This document shows positions 11,422 through 11,538 of a stretch of DNA of 64,000 nt, piece by piece; the first letter of the stretch is position 1; each line of letters opens with the position of its first letter. Where the stretch lies: the NCBI RefSeq assembly GCF_001677475.2, contig NZ_CP015229.1, one strand, 5' to 3'. The stretch is from Escherichia coli (lineage in GTDB: Bacteria > Pseudomonadota > Gammaproteobacteria > Enterobacterales > Enterobacteriaceae). The notes beneath the pieces were generated by a model. The model was not told the origin of the DNA. It worked only from the letters and a program-made list of their open reading frames with translations, and did not search any database. The position numbers and the translations under genes are program-made.

Positions 11422-11448
11422 AAAAAAAGCCTCCACTGGGAGGCTTTC
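11422..11448 (-). terminator. pheST attenuator terminator
   Basis: Minus-strand hairpin agcctcccagtggaggct followed by a T-run, between pheM and pheS. Confidence 0.6.
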
Positions 11449-11493
11449 AGGCGCTGTTTTCCGTTTCTCTTCTCACGCGCTAGCCTCCTGGAG

Positions 11494-11538
11494 TCAGGTG
11501 CTAAAGTAAAAAAAGAAGCGGAAAATAGCAGCATTCAT
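11494..11538 (-). CDS. pheM: pheST operon leader peptide (Phe-rich)
   Basis: Hand translation of the minus strand: ATG AAT GCT GCT ATT TTC CGC TTC TTT TTT TAC TTT AGC ACC TGA = [14 protein letters not shown]. Confidence 0.8.

Follow-up and report, generated by a model that had tools for sequence, protein, structure and literature searches.

On the minus strand, positions 11538..11422 of the window carry the pheM leader and the ribosome-mediated transcription attenuator of the E. coli pheST(-ihfA) operon, a reading to which we give a probability of about 0.95. The window is the whole stretch of DNA that was analysed, 64,000 nucleotides long. The attenuator is already known: it is the pheM attenuator of K-12, intact here. 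Both end points given by the first-pass annotation are exact to the base, 11538 being the A of the start codon and 11422 the last T of the terminator. With the promoter and the Shine-Dalgarno sequence set aside, every sequence-level feature of the family that could be tested was found in the window.

The locus is the E. coli rplT-pheM-pheS-pheT-ihfA region, as judged from the ORF list and from the RefSeq annotation of the matching stretch. Neighbouring ORFs match thrS, infC, rpmI, rplT, (pheM), pheS, pheT and ihfA in length and order, and the arrangement in MG1655 is identical to the gene order around pheM in the window. All features described below lie on the minus strand unless otherwise stated. 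The first regulated gene, pheS, occupies 11210..10227 (327 codons from the ATG at 11210) and was assigned from the ORF list, the RefSeq match and translation of its N-terminus. It is followed in the ORF list by pheT (10212..7825) and ihfA (7820..7521). A second ATG in the same frame precedes the annotated pheS start by 12 nt (11222..11210) and gives a mechanical ORF of 331 codons versus the 327 annotated. Elsewhere in the window, Rfam gives a match to STnc540 (RF02082; 7579..7427, 42.8 bits, gathering score 38). This match runs across the 3′ end of ihfA (7521..7820) and takes in a strong hairpin and U-run downstream of that gene. A match to the ES036/CssrF sRNA (RF02751) on the plus strand at 35418..35460 is just above threshold (38.9 bits versus a gathering score of 37.6).

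Upstream of the leader, the rplT stop codon is at 11663..11661 in the ORF list. Just past it, and upstream of the pheM promoter, a hairpin with a U-rich tail is found at 11654..11626 (-17.2 kcal/mol, z = -3.5). We considered whether the pheM hairpin is the terminator of rplT and rejected this assignment, because rplT owns the hairpin and U-tail at 11654..11626, 170 nt upstream. A candidate pheM/pheST promoter was read by eye at 11605..11576, with a -35 hexamer TTGACT (11605..11600), a 17-nt spacer and a -10 element TTCAAT(A) (11582..11576). A consensus promoter scan did not call TTGACT-17-TTCAAT and returned only an unrelated site at 12065..12038; the candidate was missed because its -10 hexamer breaks the scan rule of an A at position 2. 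The promoter of Fayat 1983 (TTCAATA) is placed 368 nt upstream of the pheS ATG in PMC4082710. Counted from 11210, this distance leads to 11578, inside the candidate -10 hexamer, i.e. at the published promoter position of K-12.

The pheM leader ORF (11538..11494) was translated directly and consists of 14 sense codons followed by UGA: ATG AAT GCT GCT ATT TTC CGC TTC TTT TTT TAC TTT AGC ACC TGA. This translation agrees with the first-pass annotation, which had seen a Phe-rich leader of 14 codons with five Phe on the minus strand. The five Phe residues are at codons 6, 8, 9, 10 and 12, three of them consecutive (11523-11521, 11517-11509 and 11505-11503). The short ORF rich in the regulatory codon that characterizes transcription attenuators is therefore present, from AUG to UGA. 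Its product is identical to RefSeq WP_001386830.1, 'pheST operon leader peptide PheM', which is annotated at the matching position in E. coli genomes. The sole Shine-Dalgarno match that can be read from the sequence is AAGG; the distance of 11 nt from its last G to the AUG is unusually long. A 44-codon ORF in another frame (11534..11400) begins 4 nt into pheM, and similar ORFs are seen in a few other species (loci L048, L049 and L117). This ORF is in all likelihood a side effect of nucleotide conservation.

The leader RNA belongs to Rfam family RF01859, Phe_leader. The match extends over 11544..11420 and covers the model at full length (positions 1-125 of 125) with 74.4 bits, above the gathering score of 55 bits (E = 9.2e-11 over the whole 64-kb window). 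RefSeq labels the same span 'Phe leader region' in E. coli genomes. The minimum free energy (MFE) of 11545..11415 is -56.7 kcal/mol, compared to -34.2 +/- 3.5 kcal/mol for 200 dinucleotide-preserving shuffles of this 131-nt stretch, none of which folds as well (z = -6.4). Both the family match and the stability of the free fold are well beyond chance expectation.

In the MFE structure of the free leader, two elements are formed: a protector helix (anti-antiterminator) and the terminator. The protector helix (11532..11451, about 26 bp, -37.3 kcal/mol) pairs a 5′ strand at 11532..11506 (leader nt 7-33) with a 3′ strand at 11476..11451 (nt 63-88) and encloses a small hairpin at 11504..11480. Its 5′ strand spans pheM codons 3-11, including four of the five Phe codons, and the fifth (codon 12) is located just past its end. 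The protector helix is probably also the pause hairpin. The intrinsic terminator (11448..11422) comprises a 5′ arm at 11448..11439, a loop at 11438..11435, a 3′ arm at 11434..11425 and a U-run at 11428..11422. The terminator scan gave GAAAGCCUCC-CAGU-GGAGGCUUUU, a 10-bp stem with 5 G-C pairs and a 4-nt loop at 11448..11425, and a run of 7 T ending at 11422, which bears out the hairpin and T-run reported earlier on this strand. The isolated terminator has an energy of -14.9 kcal/mol. It lies between the leader ORF and the structural gene, as in an attenuator, 212 nt before the pheS ATG.

The third helix, the antiterminator (11488..11439), is formed by a 5′ arm at 11488..11475 (GGAGGCUAG.GCGC, nt 51-64) and a 3′ arm at 11454..11439 (GCGCCU...AGCCUCC, nt 85-100). 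The protector helix, once opened, contributes its 3′ strand as the 20-nt loop. It takes 7 of the 10 bases of the terminator 5′ arm, i.e. the G+C core of that arm, together with bases of the protector helix. Since these bases are shared, the antiterminator excludes both the protector and the terminator. The protector helix thus provides the upstream pairing that overlaps the regulatory codons and excludes the antiterminator. A ribosome at the stop codon covers the transcript to about nt 55, including part of the antiterminator 5′ arm.

Co-transcriptional folding was treated by cutting the transcript at leader nt 100-104, before the terminator 3′ arm, and by masking a ribosome on a given codon. 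For each of the five Phe codons, a ribosome masked there gave the antiterminator as MFE structure of the truncated transcript (-16.2 to -17.2 kcal/mol); it is absent from the truncated folds of the free leader and of the leader with the ribosome at the UGA. The first-pass annotation had proposed RNA folding as a check and had named the lack of a mutually exclusive antiterminator as the result that would speak against it; such a fold was obtained for all five Phe stalls. When the full-length leader was folded at equilibrium with a 28-nt ribosome mask, the terminator stayed the MFE structure in every state, with a probability of 0.93-1.00 for the terminator core. This persistence is expected for a kinetically controlled switch. 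The switch is seen only in truncated folds because equilibrium folding keeps the terminator and cannot reveal the antiterminator.

The stability of the antiterminator was compared with that of shuffled leaders in which the 45-nt spacer was randomized and the ORF and terminator were kept. The isolated antiterminator has an energy of -17.0 kcal/mol, and in the stalled state its advantage over competing local hairpins is only 2.2 kcal/mol. Shuffles gain more on average (-3.0 kcal/mol), and 610 of 1000 equal or exceed the gain of -2.2 kcal/mol. The switch pattern itself, with the antiterminator in the stalled state and none in the free or stop states, was mimicked by 20 of 1000 shuffles, or by 47 of 1000 under an energy-based criterion (p ~0.02-0.05). 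An antiterminator that uses the terminator 5′ arm is therefore present but marginal in single-sequence shuffle tests. On one sequence the antiterminator is thermodynamically marginal, and folding alone is weak evidence. With p values of ~0.02-0.05 and no excess stability, we do not claim the single-sequence fold as proof of a switch. Because these shuffle tests are weak, we place the weight on comparative and published evidence.

For the comparative analysis, one genome per species was scanned with a degenerate pattern for the conserved L20 motif, a search blind to the leader sequence. It returned 120 loci, and pheS lies within 1.5 kb of rplT in 57 of them. A 13-18-codon ATG ORF containing a Phe run was found in 49 of these 57 loci which, with the window, makes 50 leaders. 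In all 50 the ORF is followed by a hairpin and U-run. The set is drawn from Enterobacterales and Orbales (genus Gilliamella and one Orbaceae isolate). The PheM core FRFFFYFS is conserved and nearly invariant in Enterobacterales; the Orbales peptide differs outside the Phe run. In sampled Vibrio, Aliivibrio, Shewanella, Pasteurellaceae, Psychromonas and Rheinheimera, the 1.5 kb after rplT contain no pheS. In Photobacterium, Grimontia, Kangiella and Aliikangiella pheS is adjacent, but the ORF screen detected no short ATG-start Phe-run leader; likewise, it detected no Phe-run leader at two reduced-genome symbiont loci (L011 and L104). When each species was folded separately and submitted to the same stall, free and stop test, 45 of the 50 leaders passed. 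The five exceptions miss the thresholds, not the architecture.

Conservation of the three helices was counted in an alignment of the 50 sequences (A2), with pairing partners slid by 1-3 columns as a control. The protector helix is paired in 88.2% of cells (42-58% when slid), and 12 of its pairs are changed on both sides. Some of these compensatory changes fall at third positions of Phe codons (UUC/UUU opposite G/A), a covariation which shows a constraint at the RNA level. The antiterminator is paired in 88.5% of cells (39-55% when slid), with covariation mainly in the lower GCGC stem. The terminator is paired in 97.0% of cells (40-77% when slid) and is almost invariant. The upper antiterminator stem and the terminator are nearly invariant in Enterobacterales and show little covariation; this G+C core hardly varies because GGAGGCU / AGCCUCC / GGAGGCU must stay complementary three ways. 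In Gilliamella the corresponding segments are UGAGGC / GCCUCA / GAGGC, compared to GGAGGC / GCCUCC / GGAGGC in E. coli. Six pairs of the antiterminator are retained in Gilliamella, where a G-C pair has become U-A with both sides altered. This covariation was taken from per-species folds, as MAFFT misaligns the Orbales antiterminator arm. The A2 antiterminator counts understate the Orbales covariation because of the gaps introduced in this arm (A2 columns 59-64). With 45 of 50 species passing the switch test and helices paired at 88-97% with compensatory changes, the comparative evidence is stronger than the single-sequence fold. The three-state design, with the antiterminator 5′ arm just past the stop codon, is predicted by these folds to be kept from Escherichia to bee-gut Orbales.

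Taken as a whole, we read the leader as a standard ribosome-mediated attenuator. Its transcription would start about 35-40 nt before pheM. With ample charged tRNA-Phe, the ribosome would pass the five Phe codons and reach the UGA. There it would cover the antiterminator 5′ arm, or it would leave and the protector helix would re-form. The segment AGCCUCC (11445..11439) would then be free to pair with GGAGGCU (11434..11428) in the terminator, and the polymerase would stop at the U-run 11428..11422. Under a shortage of charged tRNA-Phe, the ribosome would stall on the Phe codons and occupy the 5′ strand of the protector. The freed strand would form a loop, and GGAGGCUAG.GCGC (11488..11475) would pair with 11454..11439 before the terminator 3′ arm is made. 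The polymerase would then continue through the 210 nt of leader into pheS and pheT.

In K-12, this attenuation was shown experimentally (Fayat 1983; Trudel 1984; Springer 1985; Mechulam 1987), and readthrough is reported to increase at limiting charged tRNA-Phe (Trudel 1984; Springer 1985; Mechulam 1987), all of these studies being cited in PMC4082710. By analogy with these experiments, and given its near-identity to the K-12 sequence, the leader of the window would be expected to respond to tRNA-Phe charging in the same way. The first-pass annotation had held that the readable leader and terminator confirm classical attenuation control of pheST. The claim stands for the parts, which are intact, and for their alternative pairings, whose conservation and covariation are directly observed, the antiterminator pairing being conserved in 50 species. 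It does not stand as a confirmation, which sequence alone cannot supply and which belongs to the K-12 experiments.

Three other readings of the element were weighed. The hairpin and T-run could constitutively terminate part of the transcription that passes from the ribosomal-protein genes into pheST, or insulate the two, the Phe ORF being incidental or untranslated and Phe not being sensed. The weak single-sequence thermodynamics of the antiterminator and the long Shine-Dalgarno spacing of pheM would fit such an arrangement. However, rplT already has its own hairpin and U-tail. From Escherichia to Gilliamella the ORF is retained with its Phe run and in the same register to the helices, and the Phe-codon segment is kept paired by compensatory changes. 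Furthermore, attenuation in K-12 depends on tRNA-Phe according to the published experiments cited in PMC4082710. We therefore regard a simple insulator as very improbable. Hardly more can be said for PheM acting as a peptide, be it a micropeptide or a sequence that arrests the nascent chain, which would explain a conservation of FRFFFYFS beyond codon content. This core is indeed nearly invariant in Enterobacterales, and a TraDIS screen recovered zero transposon insertions in pheM (PMC5821084). However, the same nucleotides make up the 5′ strand of the conserved helix and are constrained at the RNA level, and the peptide varies in length (13-18 codons) and, in Orbales, outside the Phe run. A 45-nt target upstream of essential genes is also expected to be free of insertions for polar reasons. 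A function of the peptide itself is the least probable of the three.

The protector helix could also serve mainly in RNA turnover, as a point of entry for RNase III that determines pheST mRNA half-life, attenuation being secondary. RNase III cleavages within the pheM attenuator structure have been verified, which confirms that it is double-stranded, and the downstream message decays faster in the wild type than in an rnc mutant (PMC5371410). The length of the helix, about 26 bp, fits RNase III as well. The same study reports a putative RNase III site from RNA-seq at MG1655 position 1799278 and several cleavage ends, mapped by 5′ RACE, within the termination structure (PMC5371410). In the window, MG1655 1799278 corresponds to about 11546, some 8 nt upstream of the pheM AUG. 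However, cleavage by RNase III would be an added layer rather than an alternative: it leaves the Phe codons and the terminator unexplained, as well as the conserved three-way complementarity of GGAGGCU / AGCCUCC / GGAGGCU, and PMC5371410 itself places the site inside the known attenuator. Turnover as the main role thus appears very unlikely, to the same degree as the insulator. The cleavage and decay data suggest instead that a layer of mRNA decay acts on the same attenuator structure, and ribosome-mediated attenuation remains our reading of the element.

The 210 nt between the terminator and pheS, i.e. the pheS 5′ leader, contain an imperfect palindrome of 145 bp (11402..11258), which folds as a single long hairpin (-60.8 kcal/mol, z = -5.9). 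It is present at this site in ~88% of 5,425 E. coli genomes and missing in ~644-655 of them (~12%). The repeat is a member of an interspersed family, of which a genome carries a median of 5 copies; a further copy, 84% identical, is located between rlmKL and ycbX. The MG1655 RefSeq annotation has no repeat feature at the site, no Rfam family matched the repeat, and literature on RSA, ERIC and BoxC listings gave no name for it. Its centre presumably bears a partial resemblance to the ERIC primer region. The repeat might alter the stability or translation of pheST mRNA and so cause strain-to-strain differences in the synthetase, layered on the attenuator, but we consider this rather unlikely.

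Of 5,426 complete E. coli genomes, 5,425 contain the region, with identities of 98.4-99.7% to the 571-nt query that surrounds the leader, and every one of the matches listed is annotated with rplT, Phe leader region, pheM and pheS. The 571-nt stretch has no exact match among the complete E. coli genomes, the best reaching 99.7%. It combines the leader allele of repeat-less strains (L003) with the repeat allele of strain E2865. This combination suggests that the window carries a recombinant haplotype, in which the leader allele of the repeat-less strains may have been joined to the repeat.

Compared to the pheM attenuator of K-12 (RF01859; b1715), the window has the same gene order, 14-residue peptide, three helix pairings and promoter hexamers. 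Two bases differ. At 11562, which lies in the 5′ UTR and precedes the AUG by 24 nt, the window has A for G; at 11493, the first base after the UGA, it has C for A. The latter lies in a hairpin loop and is the sole difference inside the attenuator. Both variants are outside paired positions and are present in other E. coli strains (L003 and L077). In structure and energy the free fold is the same for the window and for K-12, and the antiterminator differs by 0.2 kcal/mol; on these models the two differences are predicted to be neutral. The strain is thus expected to have retained the textbook regulation of phenylalanyl-tRNA synthetase through charged tRNA-Phe, and its leader calls for little beyond correct annotation. 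The comparative set makes a modest addition, the predicted retention of the three-state design from Escherichia to Orbales.

The pheST operon is named as a classical attenuator in PMC1262725. The pheM leader shares with the trp, his, leu, thr, ilv and pheA attenuators of enteric bacteria an ORF containing regulatory codons, an intrinsic terminator, mutually exclusive upstream pairings and a choice between them made by ribosome position. Unlike these attenuators, which regulate biosynthetic pathways, pheM regulates the genes of an aminoacyl-tRNA synthetase. The textbook topology of an attenuator is the 1:2 / 2:3 / 3:4 scheme. The pheM leader departs from it in that the antiterminator 5′ arm lies inside the protector loop, directly after the stop codon, and in that the freed 3′ strand of the protector becomes the loop of the antiterminator and not one of its arms.
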